Shown piece by piece: positions 1-44,559 of a DNA stretch of 44,559 nt. The notes beneath the pieces are model-generated. The model made no database searches and was not told the DNA's origin. It saw only the letters and a program-made list of their open reading frames with translations. Numbering within the stretch: the first letter of the stretch is position 1; every line of letters begins with the position of its first letter. The DNA is from Escherichia phage AAPEc6. Position numbers and translations under genes: made by a program. The stretch lies in sequence record NC_047769.1. One strand, given 5' to 3'.

Positions 1-54
1 TCTGTTCGTTTCGTTCACTCCGCTTGCGCTACGTTCACTCGCTCACGTGTACCT

Positions 55-500
55 TAGGTTATTCCTTGATGGATGGCTTAGGTTAGCCTTAGTGGACTAC
101 CTTAGTTAAAGCCTTAGTGCTTCACTTAGTATCAGCTTAGTAGTGTACCTTAGTAAGTCTTAGTGTCTTCTCTTAGTGATTGCACATGCAAGCATGTGAG
201 ATGCCATTAGGTCGCGGTCGGTAGACCGCTAAAGAAGGGGAATAGTAATAAGATGCAGTAGGAGGAACACCAGAAACCTAGCCAACCTAGCCTATCCTAG
301 CTCTGTATCTATTGCTTTTCCTTAGTCTCACATGTTAGACAACCTATCTTATTCTTAGTGATGATAACTTAGTGTTGACAAGGTAATCTTAGTGTAATAC
401 TATGCATCACGTAGGCGGTGCTGAGGCACCTAGTAGCCAGCTAGTAAGGCATACGAAGAGACTAGCGCTTACATTGCTCTTTAACAATTTGCTTAGTGTA
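55..500 (+). repeat. Left-terminal array of short CTTAGT(G/A) repeats (about 14 copies), plus CGTTCACTC x2 at 12-40
   Basis: Repeated ccttagt/cttagtg motifs read directly in the first 500 bp; analogous short-repeat arrays flank T7-group genome ends. Confidence 0.6.
375..403 (+). promoter_or_regulatory. Candidate host sigma70 early promoter (TTGACA, 17-bp spacer, TACTAT)
   Basis: Perfect -35 hexamer with a 4/6 -10 hexamer at correct spacing, upstream of the first early ORFs. Confidence 0.3.
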
Positions 501-546
501 ACCTATGTATGCCGTGGTCAATTACTTATTGAATGAGGAATTAACT

Positions 547-726
547 ATGACATTAAACAACCGTGAACTGTCCGTTCTCTTCACTCTGTTGTGCTACATG
601 ATTCGTAACAACGAATTACTTACAGACGATGAGTTAGCCTTGTATCACCGCTTTCTTAACGAAGGTTGGATCGATACAGTTAATCAATACCGTAACATGA
701 TAGATGAGTTGAGGGAGGGTAAATAA
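547..726 (+). CDS. Hypothetical early protein (59 aa; ORF could start at 505)
   Basis: ORF track 505..726; internal ATG at 547 preceded by GAGGA at 535-539. Confidence 0.4.
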   Translation: MTLNNRELSVLFTLLCYMIRNNELLTDDELALYHRFLNEGWIDTVNQYRNMIDELREGK

Positions 727-950
727 TGTATCAACATGAGGTATTCTTTGAATCAGCTAGCGAAGCTATTCGCTTCCGTGATGATATGATGCAAGCTGGT
801 GTAGGCGTTGATGTGTATCACTATTTGATAGATTACGACACTGAATATCACCGAGTTACCTTAGTATCTGAGTATGACAACCAAGTCATTACTGAGTACC
901 TAGGCAGTGAAGATTACGATTACGATGAAGTAATCACGACAAATCTCTAA
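726..950 (+). CDS. Small acidic early protein (74 aa, D/E/Y-rich C-terminal half)
   Basis: ORF track; TAATG stop-start overlap with the upstream ORF suggests translational coupling. Confidence 0.45.
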   Translation: MYQHEVFFESASEAIRFRDDMMQAGVGVDVYHYLIDYDTEYHRVTLVSEYDNQVITEYLGSEDYDYDEVITTNL

Positions 951-958
951 ATTAACTG

Positions 959-987
959 TTGACAGCCACGGCATACAAGGTTACATT
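959..987 (+). promoter_or_regulatory. Candidate host sigma70 early promoter (TTGACA, 17-bp spacer, TACATT)
   Basis: Perfect -35 hexamer and plausible -10 hexamer in the early region. Confidence 0.3.
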
Positions 988-1079
988 AAGCATCAAGACG
1001 GCGACGTCTTTAAACATCCCGCTCTTTAACAATACGGTTTGTGTCTTGATAGGCTAACTAACTAACTAAGGTAATTATC

Positions 1080-1190
1080 ATGAAAGGTTTAATTTGTGTA
1101 GAACGTATGGTCAATGGTAAACTTGAAATATTACCACTGGAAAACCAATCTAGCTTCAAAGAGTGGTATGGCTGTTTCTCACTGATTTAA
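1080..1190 (+). CDS. Small ORF (36 aa)
   Basis: ATG at 1080 after the CTAACTAACTAA/AAGG element; below the ORF-track size cutoff. Confidence 0.25.
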   Translation: MKGLICVERMVNGKLEILPLENQSSFKEWYGCFSLI

Positions 1191-1340
1191 GGTAAAGGCT
1201 GGCACTAGTCAGCCTATCAAGGCGCAAACCAAGCTCTTTAACAATTTGGATAAAGCTTCTTAGTCTGGATAGGTTAAACCTAGGAGATTCTCTTGAGTCT
1301 CCTATAATGTAACCTAACTAACTAAATGAGGATTAATAAC

Positions 1341-1694
1341 ATGGCTATGTCTAATATGACTTACTCTCAGGTTTACAACACCGCTCATGCTGCATTAGTT
1401 GAACGCGTATGGGATGATGCCATTGATTGTATCGATAACGCACATGATGCAATCCATGAGGTGGCGGATAGTGCTGTACCAATCTATTATGCTGACATCT
1501 TCTCGGTGATGGCCAGTGAAGGAATCGACCACTTCTTCGAGGATTCTGGCTTAATGCCAGACACTAAGGATGTGACGGTCGTACTACAAGCCCGTATTTA
1601 TGAACAACTCACCATTGATTTATGGGAACGTGTTCAAGATATGATTGATGCGTACATCGATTCCGCTGAGGATTCAGAAGAAGAGGAAGAATAA
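1341..1694 (+). CDS. ocr: Ocr-like anti-restriction DNA mimic (T7 gp0.3 homolog)
   Basis: Translation MAMSNMTY...[19 protein letters not shown]...[12 protein letters not shown]...[15 protein letters not shown] with poly-Glu tail closely matches T7 Ocr as remembered; GAGGA 8 nt upstream of the ATG at 1341 (ORF track starts at 1326). Confidence 0.9.
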
Positions 1695-1696
1695 GG

Positions 1697-1810
1697 ATGG
1701 AAAAGCAATATAACTTTATCTTTTCAGACGGTGTAACCCTGAAGTGTTCCCTACGATTCGCACAAATTCGTGAGGAAGTACTAGGCACTACATACAAACT
1801 ATTTAGCTGA
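1697..1810 (+). CDS. Small ORF (37 aa) directly after ocr
   Basis: ATG at 1697 with an upstream purine-rich stretch; position analogous to the small genes after T7 0.3; weak. Confidence 0.2.
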   Translation: MEKQYNFIFSDGVTLKCSLRFAQIREEVLGTTYKLFS

Positions 1811-1825
1811 CACTATAAGAGAAGG
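1801..1825 (+). promoter_or_regulatory. Variant phage-type promoter (ATTTAGCTGACACTATAAGAGAAGG)
   Basis: Keeps the GACACTATA core but deviates around +1; possibly a weak or early-class promoter. Confidence 0.35.
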
Positions 1826-1886
1826 CTTAACAAGGCGTTGCTACGGTAGCGCCTGATTAAACTTTCACTTACTAGGAGTTAAGATT

Positions 1887-2114
1887 ATGGATTTAGATAG
1901 CATCATTATGGCGTTTGCTCTTATTGGCTTAAGCTGGTGCTCCTATCACCTTTACCGTGAGTTCTTATTTGATAAAGCTAAACGCAAACTAAGAAAGGAA
2001 GGCGGTAATTACCTTTGTGTAAGAGGTGGGCTTGTAGAATACATTGCACCTAACGGCACGGAATGCGCCATTAGCAAAGATGCATTTATAGAGACGTGGC
2101 ATTACATCAAGTAA
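1887..2114 (+). CDS. Small early membrane protein (75 aa, N-terminal hydrophobic helix)
   Basis: ORF track; AGGAG 8 nt upstream of the ATG. Confidence 0.45.
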   Translation: MDLDSIIMAFALIGLSWCSYHLYREFLFDKAKRKLRKEGGNYLCVRGGLVEYIAPNGTECAISKDAFIETWHYIK

Positions 2115-2147
2115 CTAGCCTATAGCCTGCCTGAGTGGGCTATGTGA

Positions 2148-2170
2148 TATTTACTTACACTATAAGGTGA
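2148..2170 (+). promoter_or_regulatory. Degenerate phage-type promoter (ATTTACTT-ACACTATAAGG)
   Basis: One-base deletion relative to the consensus; upstream of the 307-aa early gene. Confidence 0.25.
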
Positions 2171-2175
2171 TTAAT

Positions 2176-3099
2176 ATGACTGCTGAAAACATCATTCTGT
2201 CTGTTCGTGAAGCTGCAACCACTGAAATCAAGCAACACTTAGACAATATCGGCACTTCTTACATCAAAGTTGGCGCTTGTCTGAATGAATTACGCGGTGA
2301 TTTCGAAGGTCAAAAAGACTTTTTAGCTTATGTAGAATCAGAGTTCGGCATCAAGAAAGCACAATGCTACAAGCTGATGAGTGTAGCCCGTGTCTTTGAA
2401 GGAGATGAACGCTTTAAAGGTGTGGCTATGCGTGTAATGCTGGCGCTCGTTCCTTTCGCTGATGAGAATATAATCATGGAGAAGGCCGCAGAACTCGCCG
2501 CAGATGGCAAGCTGGACACTAATGCCGTAAATGCCCTGATTGATCCTAAGAAAGAGACAAAGGCCGAGACGGTACAATCTAAGGCTGAGGCGGTAAAACC
2601 GCAGGAGAATGCGACTGAGGCCGCAGAAACTATGCAAGGACATGCGACCTTTGAGGATTTCATCTTAGAGAAGGCGAAAGAGGAGTTACAAAGTGTGCCG
2701 CCAGTAAGTGAGTCGGGTAACGACGAATCCGCACCGTGGGAAGATGAAAGCAAGCCGGAAGCGCCTAAGGCCGCGCCACTGGATAACACGGCTAACACCG
2801 AGAATGCCGCTATTGCTGGTCTGCTGGCACAAATTAAAGCACTGACTGAGCAATTACAGGCAGCCAATGACCGCATCGCCTCCTTAAGTAGCGCACGCGA
2901 AAGCAAGAAAGCAGCCGCGCCTATGCTGCCGCAATTCAAATCTTCCTGCTTCTATGCTCGCTTAGGTTTAAGCGCTGAGGAGGCAACGAAGAAAACAGCA
3001 GTTAACAAGGCACGCCGCGAACTGGTTAAGCTGGGATACGGTGAAGGCCATGAGGCATGGCCCTTAATCTCTGAGGCAGTAGAAGAGTTGACTAAGTAA
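2176..3099 (+). CDS. Early protein of unknown function (307 aa; folded N-domain, acidic linker, C-terminal coiled coil)
   Basis: ORF track 2167..3099 (GTG); ATG at 2176 after AAGGTGA; sits where T7 has the 0.7 kinase but shows no kinase motifs. Confidence 0.6.
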   Translation: MTAENIILSVREAATTEIKQHLDNIGTSYIKVGACLNELRGDFEGQKDFLAYVESEFGIKKAQCYKLMSVARVFEGDERFKGVAMRVMLALVPFADENIIMEKAAELAADGKLDTNAVNALIDPKKETKAETVQSKAEAVKPQENATEAAETMQGHATFEDFILEKAKEELQSVPPVSESGNDESAPWEDESKPEAPKAAPLDNTANTENAAIAGLLAQIKALTEQLQAANDRIASLSSARESKKAAAPMLPQFKSSCFYARLGLSAEEATKKTAVNKARRELVKLGYGEGHEAWPLISEAVEELTK

Positions 3100-3162
3100 C
3101 CTTATCGGTGGCATCTTCTTAGGTGTCACCTATTAAGGTTTCTTTCACTAGGAGTAAACAAG

Positions 3163-5790
3163 ATGCAAGACCTACACGCTATTCAACTTCAACTTGAAGA
3201 AGAAATGTTTAACGGCGGTATCCGTCGCTTTGAAGCGGACCAACAACGCCAGATTGCATCCGGTAATGAATCAGACACGGCATGGAATCGCCGCTTATTG
3301 TCCGAGTTAATCGCGCCAATGGCTGAAGGTATTCAGGCATACAAGGAAGAGTATGAAGGTAAAAGAGGCCGTGCACCGCGTGCATTAGCTTTCATTAACT
3401 GCGTAGAAAACGAAGTGGCAGCATATATCACGATGAAAATCGTTATGGATATGCTGAACACGGATGTAACCTTGCAGGCTATAGCCATGAATGTAGCTGA
3501 CCGCATTGAGGACCAAGTACGTTTTAGCAAGCTGGAAGGTCACGCCGCCAAATACTTTGAAAAAGTTAAGAAGTCACTTAAGGCAAGTAAGACTAAATCA
3601 TATCGCCATGCGCACAATGTAGCGGTAGTGGCTGAAAAGTCTGTCGCTGACCGTGATGCGGACTTCTCCCGCTGGGAGGCATGGCCTAAAGATACCTTGT
3701 TGCAAATAGGCATGACCTTGCTAGAAATCTTGGAGAATAGCGTATTCTTCAACGGGCAACCTGTTTTCCTTCGTACCTTGCGCACTAACGGCGGCAAGCA
3801 TGGCGTTTACTACTTACAGACTAGCGAACACGTGGGTGAATGGATAACTGCATTTAAAGAGCACGTAGCTCAGCTGAGTCCAGCCTATGCACCTTGCGTT
3901 ATTCCTCCGCGTCCGTGGGTTTCTCCGTTTAATGGTGGCTTTCACACCGAGAAGGTGGCAAGTCGCATCCGTCTAGTAAAAGGTAACCGCGAGCACGTCC
4001 GCAAGCTGACTAAAAAGCAAATGCCAGCGGTTTATAAGGCTGTTAATGCATTGCAAGCCACTAAATGGCAGGTTAACAAGGAAGTGTTGCAGGTAGTAGA
4101 AGATGTTATTCGTCTAGACCTCGGTTATGGTGTACCTTCCTTTAAGCCGCTCATTGACCGCGAGAACAAACCAGCTAACCCTGTTCCTCTTGAGTTCCAA
4201 CACCTGCGAGGCCGTGAACTGAAAGAGATGCTTACGCCAGAACAGTGGCAAGCTTTTATAAACTGGAAAGGAGAATGTACCAAGCTGTATACCGCTGAAA
4301 CTAAGCGCGGAAGCAAGTCGGCGGCAACCGTTCGCATGGTTGGACAGGCCCGTAAATACAGCCAGTTTGACGCAATTTATTTTGTGTATGCACTGGACAG
4401 CCGCAGCCGTGTATACGCGCAATCTAGCACGCTCTCGCCGCAATCAAATGACTTAGGCAAGGCATTGCTCCGTTTTACCGAAGGGCAGCGTCTTGATAGC
4501 GCTGAGGCGCTTAAGTGGTTTTTGGTGAACGGGGCGAATAACTGGGGTTGGGATAAGAAAACTTTTGACGTGCGCACCGCTAACGTGCTGGACGGCGAGT
4601 TTCAAGACATGTGCCGCGACATTGCAGCCGACCCGCTGACCTTCACTCAATGGGTAAATGCCGACTCCCCTTACGGCTTCCTTGCATGGTGCTTTGAATA
4701 TGCGCGTTATCTTGATGCACTGGATGAAGGCACGCAAGACCAATTCATGACGCACCTCCCAGTCCATCAAGATGGTAGTTGTTCTGGTATACAGCACTAC
4801 AGTGCTATGCTACGCGATGCAGTAGGTGCGAAAGCAGTAAACCTTAAGCCCTCTGACTCTCCTCAAGATATTTATGGTGCCGTTGCGCAGGTAGTAATTC
4901 AGAAGAATTATGCATACATGAATGCAGAGGCTGCGGAAACCTTCACTTCTGGCAGCGTGACTTTAACAGGTGCGGAACTGCGTAGTATGGCTAGTGCGTG
5001 GGATATGATAGGAATCACTCGCGGCCTAACCAAAAAGCCCGTAATGACACTACCTTATGGCAGCACACGTCTAACCTGCCGTGAGTCAGTGATTGATTAT
5101 ATCGTTGATTTAGAAGAAAAAGAGGCCCAACGGGCTATTGCGGAAGGGCGTACCGCCAATCCTGTACACCCTTTTGATAATGACCGTAAAGACAGCCTTA
5201 CACCTAGCGCAGCTTATAACTATATGACAGCTTTAATCTGGCCTTCTATTTCGGAAGTGGTTAAAGCTCCTATAGTGGCAATGAAAATGATTCGTCAGCT
5301 TGCCCGTTTCGCAGCTAAAAGGAATGAAGGCCTAGAGTATACCCTGCCTACTGGCTTCATCTTGCAACAAAAGATTATGGCTACTGATATGCTCCGCGTA
5401 TCTACTTGCTTGATGGGAGAAATCAAGATGAGTCTACAGATTGAAACAGACGTAGTGGATGAAACGGCAATGATGGGCGCTGCTGCTCCTAACTTTGTGC
5501 ATGGTCATGATGCCAGCCACCTTATCTTAACAGTCTGCGACCTTGTTGATAAAGGGATTACATCTATCGCAGTTATTCATGACTCTTTTGGCACTCATGC
5601 AGGCCGTACAGCCGACCTTCGTGATAGCTTAAGGGCAGAAATGGTGAAGATGTATCAAGGCCGTAATGCGCTGCAAAGCCTGCTAGATGAGCACGAAGAA
5701 CGCTGGTTAGTTGATACCGGAATACAAGTACCAGAGCAAGGGGAGTTTGACCTTAACGAAATCTTAGTTTCAGACTATTGCTTCGCATAA
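3163..5790 (+). CDS. Single-subunit DNA-directed RNA polymerase (T7 gene 1 family)
   Basis: 875 aa; motifs [29 protein letters not shown] and C-terminal ...DYCFA match T7/SP6-type RNAPs; AGGAG RBS. Confidence 0.97.
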
Positions 5791-5863
5791 TATTAATAGG
5801 CCATTCCTTCGGGAGTGGCCTTTCTTTTACCTACTACCTGTAACATTTCATTAACATAAAAGT

Positions 5864-5879
5864 GTCTCACATGTGAGAC
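5864..5879 (+). repeat. 16-bp perfect palindrome GTCTCACATGTGAGAC (copy 1), just upstream of a promoter
   Basis: Read directly; identical to the copies at 6045, 8256 and 30670. Confidence 0.9.
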
Positions 5880-5881
5880 TT

Positions 5882-5903
5882 ATTTACCGGACACTATAGG
5901 ATA
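5882..5903 (+). promoter_or_regulatory. Phage RNAP promoter (ATTTACCGGACACTATAGGATA)
   Basis: Matches the window consensus ATTTACTGGACACTATAGAAG at most positions. Confidence 0.6.
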
Positions 5904-5940
5904 ACCGTCGGAGACGGGAAAGAAAGGGAAGATAAAGGAT

Positions 5941-6000
5941 ATAAAGGAAGTAATAGGTATTAAAGGTTATATAGGTTATCTAGGAATACCTATTACCTTC
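5941..6000 (+). other. AT-rich block with phased TAGGT(A/T)A repeats and an 11-bp inverted repeat (GTAATAGGTAT ... ATACCTATTAC); candidate replication origin or RNase III site
   Basis: Inverted repeat read directly (5950-5960 pairs with 5986-5996); position between RNAP and gene 1.1 with two flanking promoters mirrors the T7 primary origin. Confidence 0.45.
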
Positions 6001-6044
6001 TTCCTTCCTCTTATTACCACTCAGAGGAAGGGCAGACCTAGGTT

Positions 6045-6060
6045 GTCTCACATGTGAGAC
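6045..6060 (+). repeat. 16-bp palindrome GTCTCACATGTGAGAC (copy 2)
   Basis: Read directly. Confidence 0.9.
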
Positions 6061-6065
6061 TTCGT

Positions 6066-6088
6066 ATTTACCGGACAGTATAGATAAG
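6066..6088 (+). promoter_or_regulatory. Variant phage promoter (ATTTACCGGACAGTATAGATAAG)
   Basis: Consensus-like with CAGTATAGA replacing CACTATAGA. Confidence 0.45.
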
Positions 6089-6113
6089 ATTAACTCACTT
6101 TGGAGATTTAACC

Positions 6114-6242
6114 ATGCGCAACTTTGAGAAGATGGCCCGTAAAGCTAACCGTTTTGACATGGAAGAGGGGCAGAAGAAAGGCAAGAAGCTGAATAAGCCT
6201 GTCCGTGACCGTGCATCTAAACGCGCTGCGTGGGAGTTCTAA
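6114..6242 (+). CDS. Gene 1.1-like small basic protein (42 aa)
   Basis: Translation MRNFEKMARKANRFDMEEGQKKGKKLNKPVRDRASKRAAWEF resembles T7 gp1.1 (MRNFEKM...KLNK..RDR..KR..WE) as remembered; GGAG RBS; below the ORF-track cutoff. Confidence 0.7.
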   Translation: MRNFEKMARKANRFDMEEGQKKGKKLNKPVRDRASKRAAWEF

Positions 6243-6245
6243 GTT

Positions 6246-8234
6246 ATGGCTATTATTCAGAATGTACCGTGTCCTGCCTGTCAAAAGAATGGACATGATA
6301 TTACTGGCAACCATCTCATGATATTTGATGATGGTGCTGGCTACTGTAATCGTGGACACTTTCATGATAATGGTAGACCTTACTATCACAAGCCGGAAGG
6401 TGGCATCGAGATAACCGAGTTACCTATTACTGGCAATATCAAATATACACCTTCTCAATTCAAAGAAATGGAGAAGGAAGGGAAGATAAGCGACCCTAAA
6501 TTACGTGCCATCGCACTAGGTGGTATGCGTATGAAAGACCGTTGGGAGGTCATGAATGAGCAAGAAAGGGCAGACCAAGAAGCAGAGTGGAAACTTGATG
6601 TTGAATGGTTCCTTACGCTTAAGCGTAAGAACCTTGTTTCCCGACACATTCGCGGCGACATTTGCGCATTGTATGATGTACGTGTCGGACACGATGAAGA
6701 GGGTAGAGTCTCGAGGCATTACTATCCACGCTTCGAGAAAGGTGAGCTAGTAGGCGCTAAGTGTCGCACATTACCTAAAGACTTTAAGTTTGGTCATTTA
6801 GGTAAACTCTTTGGTATGCAAGATCTTTTCGGGATGAATACTTTGTCTCACGTGTTAGACAAGGGAAGACGAAAGGATTGCTTGCTTATTGTGGGTGGGG
6901 AACTGGATGCGCTAGCAGCGCAGCAGATGCTCCTTGATTCTGCCAAGGGTACTAAGTGGGAAGGCCAACCTTACCATGTATGGTCTGTTAACAAAGGGGA
7001 GTCTTGCCTTGAAGAGATTGTGCAGAACCGTGAACACATCGCCCAATTCAAGAAGATTATTTGGGGCTTCGATGGGGATGAGGTAGGGCAGAAGCAGAAC
7101 CAGCAAGCGGCTCGCCTGTTTCCTGGCAAATCCTATATCCTTGAGTACCCTTCTGGCTGCAAAGATGCCAACAAGGCATTGATGGCTGGCAAGGCTAAAG
7201 AGTTTGTTGATGCATGGTTTAATGCCAAGCCATCTGATGAAGTCTTTGGTAGCCAGATTAAATCTATCGCATCTCAAAGGGATAAGCTCAAGGCTGCACG
7301 TCCAGAGCAAGGACTATCATGGCCTTGGCCTAAGCTGAACAAGGTAACGCTAGGTATTCGTAAGAACCAGCTTATCATTGTAGGTGCAGGGTCTGGTGTA
7401 GGTAAGACTGAGTTCCTTCGTGAAGTAGTTAAGCACCTCATTGAAGAACACGGTGAATCTGTGGGCATCATTTCTACAGAAGACCCGATGGTCAAGGTGT
7501 CCCGTGCTTTTATCGGCAAGTGGATTGATAAGCGTATTGAGTTACCTCCAACCAACGACCCGAAAGAAGACGGATACCGTGAGGTGTTCGACTATACCGA
7601 GGAAGAAGCTAACGCCGCCATTGATTATGTAGCTGATACAGGTAAGCTGTTTGTAGCTGACCTAGAGGGTGACTATTCGATGGAAAAGGTAGAGCAAACT
7701 TGCCTAGAGTTTGAGGCTATGGGTATTTCTAATATCATCATTGATAACTTAACGGGGATTAAATTAGATGAGCGTGCTTTTGGTGGGAAGGTTGGTGCAC
7801 TTGATGAATGCGTCAAGCGGATTGGTACTATCAAAGACCGACACCCGGTTACTATATTCCTTGTATCACACCTTACACGTCCTCCGGCAAACCGTACCCA
7901 ACACGAAGAAGGTGGCGAAGTTATCCTTTCTGACTTCCGAGGCTCAGGCGCTATCGGATTCTGGGCATCTTACGCCTTGGGGATTGAGCGTAATACAAGA
8001 GCTGAAACGCTTGACGAAAGGACTACCACGTACATCTCATGTGTCAAAGACCGCGACCAAGGTATCTACACTGGAACCAAGGTCATGCTTAAGGGTGACA
8101 TTCAAACCGGACGTTTAATGGAACCACAAGCCCGTACTAAGTCATTTGATACAGGTGAAGCAAGGCAACAAGAAGTACCAGATTTACCGGACACTATAGA
8201 AGAGACTAACTTCGATGAAGAAAGTGAGTTCTGA
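6246..8234 (+). CDS. DNA primase/helicase (T7 gp4-like)
   Basis: 662 aa; N-terminal zinc ribbon (CPAC...C..GHFH), Walker A GAGSGVGKT, acidic C-terminus ending ...FDEESEF. Confidence 0.95.
   Translation: MAIIQNVPCPACQKNGHDITGNHLMIFDDGAGYCNRGHFHDNGRPYYHKPEGGIEITELPITGNIKYTPSQFKEMEKEGKISDPKLRAIALGGMRMKDRWEVMNEQERADQEAEWKLDVEWFLTLKRKNLVSRHIRGDICALYDVRVGHDEEGRVSRHYYPRFEKGELVGAKCRTLPKDFKFGHLGKLFGMQDLFGMNTLSHVLDKGRRKDCLLIVGGELDALAAQQMLLDSAKGTKWEGQPYHVWSVNKGESCLEEIVQNREHIAQFKKIIWGFDGDEVGQKQNQQAARLFPGKSYILEYPSGCKDANKALMAGKAKEFVDAWFNAKPSDEVFGSQIKSIASQRDKLKAARPEQGLSWPWPKLNKVTLGIRKNQLIIVGAGSGVGKTEFLREVVKHLIEEHGESVGIISTEDPMVKVSRAFIGKWIDKRIELPPTNDPKEDGYREVFDYTEEEANAAIDYVADTGKLFVADLEGDYSMEKVEQTCLEFEAMGISNIIIDNLTGIKLDERAFGGKVGALDECVKRIGTIKDRHPVTIFLVSHLTRPPANRTQHEEGGEVILSDFRGSGAIGFWASYALGIERNTRAETLDERTTTYISCVKDRDQGIYTGTKVMLKGDIQTGRLMEPQARTKSFDTGEARQQEVPDLPDTIEETNFDEESEF
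6845..6860 (+). repeat. Palindrome variant GTCTCACGTGTTAGAC inside the primase-helicase CDS
   Basis: Read directly; one mismatch from the perfect palindrome. Confidence 0.6.
8182..8204 (+). promoter_or_regulatory. Phage promoter (ATTTACCGGACACTATAGAAGAG) embedded in the helicase C-terminal codons
   Basis: Near-consensus; encodes ...DLPDTIEET... Confidence 0.6.
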
Positions 8235-41554: not shown

Positions 41555-43990
41555 ATGATTCAAAGACTAGGTTCTTCATTAGTTAAATTCAAGAGTAAAA
41601 TAGCAGGTGCAATCTGGCGTAACTTGGATGACAAGCTCACCGAGGTTGTATCGCTTAAAGATTTTGGAGCCAAAGGTGATGGTAAGACAAACGACCAAGA
41701 TGCAGTAAATGCAGCGATGGCTTCAGGTAAGAGAATTGACGGTGCTGGTGCTACTTACAAAGTATCATCTTTACCTGACATGGAGCGATTCTATAACACC
41801 CGCTTCGTATGGGAACGTTTAGCAGGTCAACCTCTTTACTATGTGAGTAAAGGTTTTATCAATGGTGAACTATATAAAATCACGGATAACCCTTATTACA
41901 ATGCTTGGCCTCAAGACAAAGCGTTTGTATATGAGAACGTGATATATGCACCTTACATGGGTAGTGACCGTCATGGTGTTAGTCGTCTGCATGTATCATG
42001 GGTTAAGTCTGGTGACGATGGTCAAACATGGTCTACTCCAGAGTGGTTAACTGATCTGCATCCAGATTACCCTACAGTGAACTATCATTGTATGAGTATG
42101 GGTGTATGTCGCAACCGCCTGTTTGCCATGATTGAAACACGTACTTTAGCCAAGAACGCACTAACCAATTGTGCATTGTGGGATCGCCCTATGTCTCGTA
42201 GTCTGCATCTTACTGGTGGTATCACTAAGGCTGCAAATCAGAGATATGCAACAATCCATGTACCTGATCACGGACTCTTCGTGGGCGATTTTGTTAACTT
42301 CTCTAATTCTGCGGTAACAGGTGTATCAGGTGATATGACTGTTGCAACGGTAATAGATAAGGACAACTTCACGGTTCTTACACCTAACCAGCAGACTTCA
42401 GATTTGAATAACGATGGAAAGAGTTGGCACATGGGTACTTCTTTCCATAAGTCTCCATGGCGTAAGACAGATCTTGGTCTAATCCCTCGTGTCACAGAGG
42501 TGCATAGCTTTGCTACTATTGATAACAATGGCTTTGTTATGGGCTATCATCAAGGTGATGTAGCTCCACGAGAAGTTGGTCTTTTCTACTTCCCTGATGC
42601 TTTCAATAGCCCATCTAATTATGTTCGTCGTCAGATACCATCTGAGTATGAACCAGATGCGGCAGAGCCATGCATCAAGTACTATGACGGTGTATTATAC
42701 CTTATCACTCGTGGCACTCGTGGTGACAGACTTGGAAGCTCTTTGCATCGTAGCAGAGATATAGGTCAGACTTGGGAGTCACTGAGATTTCCACATAATG
42801 TTCATCATACTACCTTACCTTTTGCTAAAGTAGGAGATGACCTTATTATGTTTGGTTCAGAACGTGCAGAAAATGAATGGGAAGCAGGTGCACCAGATGA
42901 TCGTTACAAGGCATCTTATCCTCGTACCTTCTATGCACGATTGAATGTAAACAATTGGAATGCAGATGATATTGAATGGGTTAACATCACAGACCAAATC
43001 TATCAAGGTGACATTGTGAACTCTAGTGTAGGTGTAGGTTCTGTTGTAGTTAAAGACAGCTACATTTACTATATCTTTGGTGGAGAAAACCATTTCAACC
43101 CAATGACTTATGGTGACAACAAAGATAGAGACCCATTTAAAGGTCATGGACACCCTACTGATATATACTGCTATAAGATGCAGATTGCAAATGACAATCG
43201 TGTATCTCGTAAGTTTACATATGGTGCAACTCCGGGTCAAGCTATACCTACTTTCATGGGTACTGATGGAATACGAAATATCCCTGCACCTTTGTATTTC
43301 TCAGATAACATTGTTACAGAGGATACTAAAGTTGGACACTTAACACTTAAAGCAAGCACAAGTTCCAATATACGATCTGAAGTGCAGATGGAAGGTGAAT
43401 ATGGCTTTATTGGCAAGTCTGTTCCAAAGGACAACCCAACTGGTCAACGTTTGATTATTTGTGGTGGAGAAGAGACTTCGTCCTCTTCAGGTGCACAGAT
43501 AACTTTGCACGGCTCTAATTCAAGTAATGCTAAGCGTATCACTTATAACGGAAATGAGCACCTATTCCAAGGTGCACCAATCATGCCTGCTGTAGATAAC
43601 CAGTTTGCTGCTGGTGGACCCAGTAACCGATTCACGACCATCTACCTAGGTAGTGACCCTGTTACAACTTCAGATGCTGACCACAAGTACGGTATCTCTA
43701 GTATTAATACCAAGGTGTTAAAGGCTTGGAGCAGGGTTGGTTTTAAACAGTATGGTTTGAATAGTGAAGCAGAGAGGAACCTTGATAGCATACACTTCGG
43801 TGTCTTGGCTCAGGATATTGTAGCTGCTTTTGAAGCTGAAGGGTTAGATGCCATTAAGTATGGAATTGTGTCCTTCGAAGAAGGTAGGTACGGTGTGAGG
43901 TATAGTGAAGTTCTAACCCTAGAGGCTGCTTATACTCGTTATCGTTTAGACAAGTTAGAGGAGATGTATGCCACTAATAGAATCAGTTAA
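41555..43990 (+). CDS. Tailspike endosialidase (endo-N-acetylneuraminidase) with C-terminal intramolecular chaperone domain
   Basis: 811 aa; two Asp-box motifs (SGDDGQTW, SRDIGQTW); C-terminal TSDADHK...HFGVLAQ; AAGGAGG RBS. Confidence 0.88.
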   Translation: MIQRLGSSLVKFKSKIAGAIWRNLDDKLTEVVSLKDFGAKGDGKTNDQDAVNAAMASGKRIDGAGATYKVSSLPDMERFYNTRFVWERLAGQPLYYVSKGFINGELYKITDNPYYNAWPQDKAFVYENVIYAPYMGSDRHGVSRLHVSWVKSGDDGQTWSTPEWLTDLHPDYPTVNYHCMSMGVCRNRLFAMIETRTLAKNALTNCALWDRPMSRSLHLTGGITKAANQRYATIHVPDHGLFVGDFVNFSNSAVTGVSGDMTVATVIDKDNFTVLTPNQQTSDLNNDGKSWHMGTSFHKSPWRKTDLGLIPRVTEVHSFATIDNNGFVMGYHQGDVAPREVGLFYFPDAFNSPSNYVRRQIPSEYEPDAAEPCIKYYDGVLYLITRGTRGDRLGSSLHRSRDIGQTWESLRFPHNVHHTTLPFAKVGDDLIMFGSERAENEWEAGAPDDRYKASYPRTFYARLNVNNWNADDIEWVNITDQIYQGDIVNSSVGVGSVVVKDSYIYYIFGGENHFNPMTYGDNKDRDPFKGHGHPTDIYCYKMQIANDNRVSRKFTYGATPGQAIPTFMGTDGIRNIPAPLYFSDNIVTEDTKVGHLTLKASTSSNIRSEVQMEGEYGFIGKSVPKDNPTGQRLIICGGEETSSSSGAQITLHGSNSSNAKRITYNGNEHLFQGAPIMPAVDNQFAAGGPSNRFTTIYLGSDPVTTSDADHKYGISSINTKVLKAWSRVGFKQYGLNSEAERNLDSIHFGVLAQDIVAAFEAEGLDAIKYGIVSFEEGRYGVRYSEVLTLEAAYTRYRLDKLEEMYATNRIS

Positions 43991-44119: not shown

Positions 44120-44559
44120 AGGTTAATATCTTAGTGTACACAAGGGCAGACCTAGGTTTGCTCTTAGTGTATTTACAATGGAGGTCTTATGTATATACCT
44201 ATGGAAGCAATAGTAGGTGGCCTATGCTTGTTGATAGGTTTCGTTATAGGCTTAATAGCAAATCCTTAGTCCTGTACAAGGATTAACCAAAGTCAAAATT
44301 TTGATATAGGCGTGTGTCAGCTCTCTCGCCCTCGCCCTCGCCGGGTTGTCCCCATAGGGTGGCCTGAGGGAATCCGTCTTCGACGGGCAGGGCTGAGGTA
44401 CTCATTGGCTAGTACAAGGGAGGCGGAGGGAACGCCTAGGGAGGCCTAGGAATGGCTTAGTGGTGGACAAGGTGATTACCTTAGTGAAGCCTCTTAGTGC
44501 ATTCCTGAGGCCATTCAGGGCGTTTATGAGGGATTGACAGGGTGGGCGTGGGTGGGCTA
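44120..44559 (+). repeat. Right-terminal region: CTTAGTG repeats (about 6 copies) flanking a GC-rich block (44310-44450)
   Basis: Same heptamer family as at the left end; local GC-rich stretch with CCCTCG repeats is atypical for this genome. Confidence 0.55.
44189..44269 (+). CDS. Hydrophobic miniprotein (26 aa, single predicted TM)
   Basis: GGAGG 4 nt upstream of the ATG; MYIPMEAIVGGLCLLIGFVIGLIANP. Confidence 0.25.
   Translation: MYIPMEAIVGGLCLLIGFVIGLIANP

Follow-up and report, generated by a model that had tools for sequence, protein, structure and literature searches.

Why does the early leader of Escherichia phage AAPEc6 contain the same 13-nucleotide (nt) sequence three times? A first-pass annotation of sequence record NC_047769.1, whose full 44,559 nt are referred to here as the window, had noted the 13-mer GCTCTTTAACAAT at positions 476, 1021 and 1233, had likened it to the RNase III processing sites that separate the early cistrons of phage T7, and had named a translation-initiation or regulatory module as the alternative. 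Our analysis suggests that the 13-mer is the boxA of ribosomal RNA (rrn) operons, and that the early leader consists of tandem units laid out like such an operon, because each boxA heads a unit whose flanks pair into a long stem. BoxA antitermination combined with long-range stalks and RNase III processing is the account that we favour, with a probability of about two in three.

The copies lie in the leftmost, host-transcribed early region, which extends from a predicted promoter (375-403) to the phage RNA polymerase (RNAP) gene and a terminator-like hairpin. The first 2.2 kb of the window resemble K1-5/K1E-like coliphages (Vectrevirus, SP6 group, Autographiviridae), the closest being EEc4 (96.8%).

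The 13-mer and the boxA of ribosomal RNA operons

All three copies were found to be exact and on the plus strand, and each lies upstream of an early gene start, as had been claimed (ATG 547, ATG 1080 and ATG 1341). There is no other exact copy in the 44.5 kb; the closest further match, with 2 mismatches, is on the minus strand at 43310. The copies are thus confined to the early leader, about 1.3 kb long, and lie within 770 base pairs (bp), while by simple arithmetic a single copy in 44.5 kb would be expected only about 1e-3 times. A shuffle control counted 4 matches against 1.37 expected, a number reached by 6 of 100 shuffles; it says little because it was run at up to 2 mismatches.

BoxA is an RNA signal that loads NusB/NusE, together with NusA, NusG and SuhB, onto the RNA polymerase of Escherichia coli and makes the polymerase resistant to termination. 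A 35-nt query was compared by BLAST with E. coli genomes, and one of the matches listed located the rrnB leader, placing the query about 130 nt 5' of the rrnB 16S gene, directly after the boxB hairpin. GCTCTTTAACAAT is identical over 13 nt to the rrnB leader boxA (positions 2505-2517 of our rrnB locus L003, between P2/boxB and 16S). The boxA of the rrnB 16S-23S spacer, GCTCTTTAAAAAT, differs by one base. All three window copies also fit GYTCTTTAANA, the gamma-proteobacterial boxA consensus (PMC5725501). Judged by its sequence, the phage 13-mer is a boxA and a putative Nus loading site. The earlier alternative of a regulatory module comes closer than an RNase III site, since the 13-mer equals the rrn antitermination boxA.

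The third copy resembles rrn sequence over a longer stretch. BoxA3 with the 12 nt 3' of it (GCTCTTTAACAATTTGGATAAAGCT, 1233-1257) is identical at 22 of 25 positions to the boxA region of the rrnB spacer (GCTCTTTAAAAATCTGGATCAAGCT, L003 4425-4449), and T7 is similar in this extended region (...AATCTGGTAAATAGCT). Going by the sequences compared, the extended match could mean that the recognition element is longer than boxA itself, or that the stretch was captured from an rrn spacer of the host.

Copies 1 and 2 are preceded by predicted sigma-70-like promoters (375-403 and 959-987), and copy 3 is reached by read-through. The predicted start of the first promoter, P1, is near 410, about 65 nt 5' of boxA1. 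BoxA2 is unpaired in local and global folds; boxA1 and boxA3 are partly pulled into weak, non-conserved helices in the global minimum free energy (MFE) structure. One hairpin of the global fold would sequester boxA3 (AGCTCTTTA/TAAAGCT, 1231-1258); we set it aside as probably incidental, its 3' half not being conserved in K1-5.

Copies of boxA were also found in relatives. There are 3 in K1-5 and 2 in SP6, the latter with a degenerate third, GATCTTTAACAAT. T7 has an exact boxA 12-mer at 813-824, between promoter A3 (750) and the R0.3/gene 0.3 hairpin. In a set of 28 loci from viral contigs anchored on the ocr gene, the consensus occurs 5' of ocr on the plus strand in 25, with a single stray match on the minus strand; the other 3 are without it. 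T7-like loci have 1 copy about 100 nt before ocr, SP6-like loci 2-3. Among 46 units drawn from 28 loci, the boxA core hardly varies, while the flanks diverge.

A boxA in this type of early region is already known for T7 itself. A passage of PMC3709561 that cites Savalia 2010 states that T7 can do without Gp2 when its "boxA anti-termination element" is mutated; a working boxA in a T7-type early region can therefore be taken as established. Neither boxA nor RNase III features are annotated in the GenBank entries of K1-5, SP6 and T7. A full-text literature search, with the original SP6 and K1-5 genome papers outside its coverage, returned no description of repeated boxAs or boxA-linked long-range stalks in SP6-group phages. 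An Rfam scan of positions 1-6500 at permissive E-values gave only chance matches to microRNAs and small nucleolar RNAs.

Long-range stalks and local hairpins

When every boxA was listed with its context in 16 SP6-group loci, the sequence immediately 3' of one boxA proved to be complementary to the sequence just 5' of the next. In the window, the 5' strands of the resulting helices (25-28 bp) start 1-3 nt after boxA1 and boxA2. The 3' strands lie 145-450 nt downstream and end 2-28 nt before the next boxA, so that 1-2 cistrons are enclosed.

In stalk 1, a repeat search paired 490-504 with 978-992 and 506-517 with 966-977, that is, 27 of 28 positions with a one-base bulge. The duplex has a free energy (dG) of -48, compared with a mean of -27 for shuffled arms. 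In stalk 2, the 25 nt of 1036-1060 are 88% complementary to 1206-1230, with G.U pairs in addition (dG -40.7); its 3' strand also overlaps an alternative local hairpin at 1196-1215. Both are long-range duplexes of at least 20 bp with the 5' strand next to a boxA, as in rrn leader-trailer helices. When the 936-nt transcript 410-1345 was folded as a whole (z -6.0), the two stalks and the hairpin after copy 3 appeared in the MFE structure as well as in the centroid. At 25-28 bp, the stalks look like textbook-type RNase III substrates and are candidates for that role by analogy.

The free energy comparison was extended to the 16 SP6-group loci by pairing the 44 nt after each boxA with the next 2 kb (duplexfold), with shuffled arms for comparison. 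The best partner of every non-terminal arm, with one exception, ended 1-29 nt before the next boxA, and duplex energies ranged from -34 to -53 against a shuffled-arm mean of about -26. For the last boxA of each of these genomes, no long-range partner above background was found in the next 2 kb. When the same procedure was applied to rrnB, 2516-2559 (from the end of boxA) paired with 4194-4237 (right after the 16S 3' end) at dG -57 versus -31; the procedure therefore recovers the known 16S RNase III leader-trailer stalk.

A more divergent set comprised Salmonella BP12B, Proteus PM116, Erwinia VyarbaL, Aeromonas MJG and 22 further loci from IMG/VR. The same layout was present in nearly all of these loci (20/22 of the more divergent ones), at RNAP identities from 86% down to 42% and with at least 10 unrelated families of arm sequence. 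Across the units examined, the next boxA follows the previous 3' arm within 1-31 nt and the stalks enclose cistrons of 110-800 nt. Two of the 22 IMG/VR loci, L195 and L198 (RNAP identity 40% and 29%), have no boxA 5' of the RNAP gene.

Base changes in the arms are often compensatory. For the stalk-1 family (alignment A2, 19 distinct units), 92.8% of cells were paired, versus 23-43% when the partner was slid, and 11 of 27 pairs were compensatory, with 31 cells changed on both sides. G.U was the commonest pair at one position. For the stalk-2 family (alignment A4, 14 units, some divergent rows out of register), 86.6% of cells were paired versus at most 42% after sliding, and 10 of 20 pairs were compensatory. 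None of 500 shuffles reached the observed values in either alignment. Without any alignment, cognate arms had a median dG of -45.9 and non-cognate arms of -22.9. Comparison of these units indicates that the stalk helices are maintained by covariation while their sequence drifts between lineages, a behaviour also described for the rrn leader-trailer helix (PMC10250234).

The pairing also has a strand preference. G.U pairs outnumbered A.C single mismatches by 139 to 15, and in 36 of the 46 units the duplex was stabler on the sense than on the antisense strand (Wilcoxon p = 1.4e-6). The G.U excess and sense-strand stability, together with the global fold, therefore point to a structure in the plus-sense RNA. 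The identity of boxA, the geometry of the units and the RNA helices can be regarded as shown at the level of sequence comparison.

Several other viral contigs found by the boxA motif, with no SP6-like RNAP within their loci, likewise have an arm 3' of boxA that pairs strongly with a distal partner (dG -39 to -49): L131 (4207, 4531, 5540), L140 (minus strand; 5804, 6108 and 6587 of the reverse complement), L168, L105 and L133. The distal partner in L140 includes a TTGACA promoter, and in L131 an rrn boxB-like hairpin, GCTGAGAAATCAGC, stands directly 5' of two boxAs. Open reading frames (ORFs) neighbouring the boxAs of these contigs encode, among others, tail-fibre-like proteins with Mtd_N/collagen repeats and an HNH endonuclease.

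Local folding of each copy, as the first-pass annotation had proposed, gave a divided result. A significant hairpin follows copy 3 (z -4.0), whereas copies 1 and 2 have no significant local fold on their 3' side (z 0.0 and -0.5). In this hairpin, at 1261-1324, an internal loop separates an upper stem of 10 bp from a lower stem (...GGATAGGTT / AACCTAACTAACTA). Its two lower-stem strands contain GATAGG (1268-1273) and CTAACTAACTAA (1314-1325), and the latter also supplies TAA in all three frames just 5' of the Shine-Dalgarno sequence (SD). The similar sequences that had been noticed downstream of the last two copies, GTCTTGATAGGCTAACTAACTAACTAAGG at 1044-1072 and TCTGGATAGGTTAA...CTAACTAACTAA at 1264-1325, are indeed present; they are alike because GATAGG is part of the 5' strand both of stalk 2 and of the copy-3 hairpin.

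The region from boxA to gene 0.3 of T7 folds into a like hairpin, and the order of boxA, hairpin and ocr is the same as in the window. Folding lineage by lineage, we found a bipartite hairpin after the last boxA in 19 of 19 lineages tested, T7 included. Close relatives show compensatory changes in the upper stem of the hairpin after boxA3. RNAalifold yielded no consensus structure for the hairpin that ends the array, as its swapped upper stems resisted alignment by MAFFT. The architecture of a T7-type site (a coaxial stem of about 20 bp with an internal loop, between cistrons) was recognised at 1261-1324, 1808-1885 and 3094-3145.

The favoured account and its competitors

A unit consists of an optional promoter, boxA, the 5' arm, an SD with one or more cistrons, and the 3' arm, which often is the next promoter; the next boxA then follows. 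At the end of the array stand a boxA, a local hairpin of the RNase III type and ocr.

On the account that we favour, host polymerase from each early promoter would transcribe a boxA within about 30-70 nt and would thereby be converted into an rrn-type antitermination complex, resistant to Rho and faster in elongation. Such a polymerase would secure transcription over about 5 kb to the RNAP gene, the distal target of early transcription by the host enzyme. It would probably also help genome entry, pulling the genome into the cell. A boxA held by the polymerase would keep the adjacent 5' arm at the RNA exit until the 3' arm emerges, and the arms would then pair. The same has been proposed for the 16S leader strand, held at the RNA exit by NusB-bound boxA until the trailer emerges (PMC10250234; PMC4807359). 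RNase III would cut the 25-28 bp stalks and the local hairpins to release discrete early mRNAs. The fresh boxA after each stalk would have two kinds of user: polymerases newly started at the embedded promoter, and polymerases reading through from upstream, which would be re-equipped after losing their earlier boxA RNA to cleavage.

A wider proposal would extend this to the SP6 group and some other phages, whose early operons would be tandem mimics of the rRNA operon: the complex would tether the 5' arm to a distant 3' arm, an RNase III stalk would form around the cistrons, and the 3' arm would be the next promoter. We put this forward tentatively, with the odds somewhat against it. If true, processed and primary transcripts would share nearly the same boxA-proximal 5' end, and the Nus/SuhB "loop" function would have in the stalks its first natural substrate outside ribosomal RNA. 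If the units themselves are real, a virulent phage has copied not just the antitermination signal of the rrn operon but its layout too, and the units would offer a small, non-essential and genetically tractable system for asking whether the main job of the Nus factors is antitermination or the tethering of boxA for distant pairing. The element also bears on the engineering of K1-5- or SP6-type therapeutic phages, since insertions in the early region could break stalks or part a boxA from its arm.

The E. coli rrn operon is a close known parallel. The phage boxA is identical, and in both systems a long-range helix of 25-45 bp has its 5' strand immediately 3' of boxA, with another boxA after the first stalk; in rrn, one boxB-boxA-boxC set stands after P2 and another before 23S. 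There are also differences. The phage stalks enclose translated mRNA cistrons and not rRNA, and since these cistrons are protein-coding, the phage stalks are an analogue of the rRNA stalks and not a member of their class. The phage has 2-4 tandem units without a tRNA between the 3' arm and the next boxA, and its 3' arm usually doubles as a sigma-70 promoter. A boxB-like hairpin occurs inconsistently in the phages, and there is no conserved boxC sequence. We had considered such a hairpin as a constant part of the unit, and rejected it because it is not conserved among relatives.

T7 shares the boxA 12-mer, the arrangement of the window's unit 3 and an early region transcribed by host polymerase up to the phage RNAP gene. 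Unlike the window, T7-like phages have one boxA after clustered promoters (A1-A3 in T7). Long-range stalks were not seen in T7, where none were looked for; its processing sites (R0.3 to R1.3) were reportedly described by Dunn and Studier as local hairpins.

In lambda, too, the phage uses boxA RNA and host Nus factors to modify host polymerase at nut sites (PMC10250234). The lambda boxA deviates from the rrn consensus and needs N on boxB, whereas the window boxA is a perfect rrn boxA, a form that needs no phage factor in rrn operons. No conserved boxB was found in the relatives, and no N-like gene was noticed, although N-like genes were not searched for. Non-ribosomal boxAs are known from bacteria. 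The one in the 5' untranslated region of suhB recruits Nus factors and affects a downstream RNA element at a distance (PMC5725501), and boxAs in the leaders of CRISPR (clustered regularly interspaced short palindromic repeat) arrays are described as recruiting Nus factors and shielding long RNA from Rho (PMC7665894). These are single sites, none of them described with a processing stalk or in tandem units, unlike those of the phage.

Several points weigh against the account that we favour. Nus binding, antitermination, tethering and RNase III cleavage are steps that we infer. Complexes of the rrn type are thought to act mainly on Rho-dependent termination, and no Rho-dependent terminator has been demonstrated in the window. 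Re-equipping read-through polymerases cannot be essential because T7 manages with one boxA, and T7 has that single boxA yet several RNase III sites. The units are kin, so that the covariation and unit statistics treat as separate what is not phylogenetically independent, and the structures of alignments A2 and A4 were taken from the window sequence, which inflates the fraction of paired cells relative to the slid controls. Some units deviate. The partner lies 106 nt before the next boxA in L046_1784, the exception among the SP6-group loci, and 338 nt before it in L179_762; the duplex is no better than shuffles in L186_1594 and L175_671 and merely equals the best shuffle in L190_798. Finally, three copies are most simply explained by the scattered promoters, each requiring its own downstream boxA; this covers most copies and leaves boxA3 of the window unexplained.

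The promoter data bear directly on this last point. A sigma-70-type promoter overlaps the 3' arm in 32 of the 46 units, with its spacer and -10 falling on the arm. Most of these promoters have a perfect TTGACA and 17 bp between the two hexamers, and 17-34 nt separate the end of the -10 from the following boxA. The window has this overlap at stalk 1 (promoter P2) and none at stalk 2; the predicted P2 start, near 994, lies just past the end of the 3' arm at 992. Promoter spacers normally vary freely, and in the overlapping units the spacer covaries with the distant arm, as judged from the sequences compared. The remaining 14 units, boxA3 of the window (no good promoter) and 13 others, lack a promoter in the 3' arm.

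The best-surviving competitor builds on these promoters. BoxA would be a promoter-proximal antiterminator only, one per early promoter, and the duplexes would be real RNA structures that serve something other than RNase III, such as guarding mRNA ends against exonucleases, keeping untranslated RNA out of reach of Rho or RNase E, or adjusting how the enclosed cistrons are translated. Since 32 of 46 units have a canonical promoter in the 17-34 nt range 5' of the next boxA, one boxA per promoter would explain most of the repetition. Covariation demonstrates a helix and not its cleavage, and the leader-trailer helix of rrn has an importance that does not depend on RNase III (PMC10250234). We nevertheless consider this explanation unlikely. 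Near-perfect duplexes of 25-30 bp are the canonical RNase III substrate, and the procedure that found them also finds the rrn stalk that RNase III cuts. The last unit of every lineage has a hairpin of the T7 R0.3 type, so that RNase III processing is already part of this type of operon. Lastly, boxA3 of the window and the 13 other promoterless units have no promoter to account for them.

A second competitor works at the level of DNA. Leaders, promoters and inverted repeats would mark module boundaries for the recombinational shuffling of cassettes, or would stem from inversely duplicated promoters, without any role of RNA. The early region is indeed mosaic, with the same boxA-plus-arm leaders heading different genes in different phages, and the 3' arms overlap promoters. 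Promoter-early stem-loop (PeSL) modules of T4-type phages, which flank shuffled small genes in a mosaic early region, are repeated modules of a similar kind; their stem-loops are local and lack boxA, and the role proposed for them is recombinational shuffling and not Nus loading or long-range pairing. Recombination would need direct repeats and not inverted ones, however, and unrelated arm pairs keep their complementarity through compensatory changes. G.U pairs and the greater stability of the sense strand point to RNA. We also examined the 5' arm as a divergent promoter and rejected this, as its reverse complement has a poor or unusable -35 or the wrong spacing. Of the 46 3' arms, 14 are promoterless. 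A purely DNA-level origin is therefore very improbable in our view.

We rate as equally improbable a decoy, in which abundant early transcripts with three perfect boxAs would draw NusB/NusE/SuhB off the host's rrn operons and so help to shut off the host. Perfect rrn-type sites in multiple copies on a strongly transcribed early RNA would suit this role, but it leaves unexplained the coupling of boxA to an arm and the 1-31 nt spacing after the previous 3' arm, and T7-like phages carry a single copy.

The original proposal, that the 13-mer with GATAGG...CTAACTAACTAA is itself a repeated T7-type RNase III recognition site, is scarcely credible in spite of the T7-like bipartite hairpin that follows copy 3: the 13-mer is identical to the rrn boxA, it lies outside that hairpin and both stalks, upstream of the cleavage-type hairpin in the window as in T7 (where the 12-mer is separate from R0.3), and the absence of a significant local fold at copies 1 and 2 contradicts it at the sequence level. 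The comparison with T7 processing sites holds for the surroundings of the 13-mer, namely the copy-3 hairpin and the covarying stalks after copies 1 and 2.

Other features of the early region

The features discussed are collected in Table 1.

Table 1. Position of boxA copies, stalk strands, hairpins, promoters and genes in the early region of the window
Feature	Position	Strand	Remarks
Promoter P1	375..403	+	sigma-70-type TTGACA-17-TACTAT; consensus scan 10/12; prediction
boxA1, GCTCTTTAACAAT	476..488	+	exact match; putative NusB/NusE loading site
Stalk 1, 5' strand, TGCTTAGTGTAACCT-A-TGTATGCCGTGG	490..517	+	inverted repeats I6 and I10
Two early cistrons (547-726, 726-950)	547..950	+	inside stalk 1; K1-5 genes 1 and 2
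Promoter P2	959..987	+	sigma-70-type TTGACA-17-TACATT; prediction
Stalk 1, 3' strand	966..992	+	overlaps P2 spacer, -10 and about 5 further nt
Small hairpin AAGACG-gcga-CGTCTT	995..1010	+	boxB position, 10 nt 5' of boxA2; read from sequence
boxA2, GCTCTTTAACAAT	1021..1033	+	exact match
Stalk 2, 5' strand, GGTTTGTGTCTTGATAGGCTAACTA	1036..1060	+	inverted repeat I2; holds GATAGG 1048-1053
CTAACTAACTAACTAA	1054..1069	+	TAA in three frames, just 5' of SD (AAGG) and ATG 1080
Early ORF, 36 amino acids (aa)	1080..1190	+	good SD; sole cistron within stalk 2
Stalk 2, 3' strand, TAGTCAGCCTATCAAGGCGCAAACC	1206..1230	+	ends 2 nt before boxA3
boxA3, GCTCTTTAACAAT	1233..1245	+	exact match
Local bipartite hairpin	1261..1324	+	candidate T7 R0.3 equivalent; dG -27.1, z -4.0
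ocr, T7 gene 0.3-like anti-restriction gene	1341..1694	+	first cistron 3' of last boxA
Intercistronic bipartite hairpin	1808..1885	+	candidate RNase III site; dG -30.6, z -5.0
Hairpin just 5' of RNAP gene	3094..3145	+	T7 R1 position; z -3.1
Phage single-subunit RNAP gene	3163..5790	+	ORF list; 99% identity to Vectrevirus RNAPs
Intrinsic-terminator-like hairpin and T run	5798..5821	+	likely end of early operon

The small hairpin before boxA2 is variable and not conserved among relatives. The 36-aa ORF is unannotated in K1-5, whose record leaves a gap after gene 2 and before gene 3. The true start of ocr is ATG 1341, its product beginning MAMSNM as in T7 gene 0.3.

The genes behind the leaders differ between phages. 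The leader formed by boxA3 and its hairpin (1246-1345, compared with 1480-1580 of locus L001) heads ocr (MAMSNM...) in the window and a gene for MERNANAYY... or MKRDANAYY... in K1-5, L035 and L040. The stalk-1 leader heads at least 3 unrelated first genes across different phages.

The hairpin at 5798-5821 is likely to be the end of the early operon. Another terminator-like hairpin, TATAGCCTGCCTGAGTGGGCTATG with a T-rich tail, stands at 2121-2144 in the middle of the operon, after the ORF at 1887-2114; a boxA-modified polymerase might have to pass through it. Two sequences in the host-transcribed region 5' of the RNAP gene, ATTTAGCTGACACTATAAGAGAAG (1801-1824) and ATTTACTTACACTATAAGGTGA (2146-2168), appear to resemble the SP6-type phage promoter.

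The heptamer CTTAGTG occurs 24 times in the window against 7.5 expected, a number reached by 0 of 100 shuffles. Eight copies lie in the first 500 nt (88-498) and 5 in the last 430 nt (44130-44499), all on the plus strand, and they appear to be short repeats tied to the genome ends. One copy (492-498) falls within the 5' arm of stalk 1.

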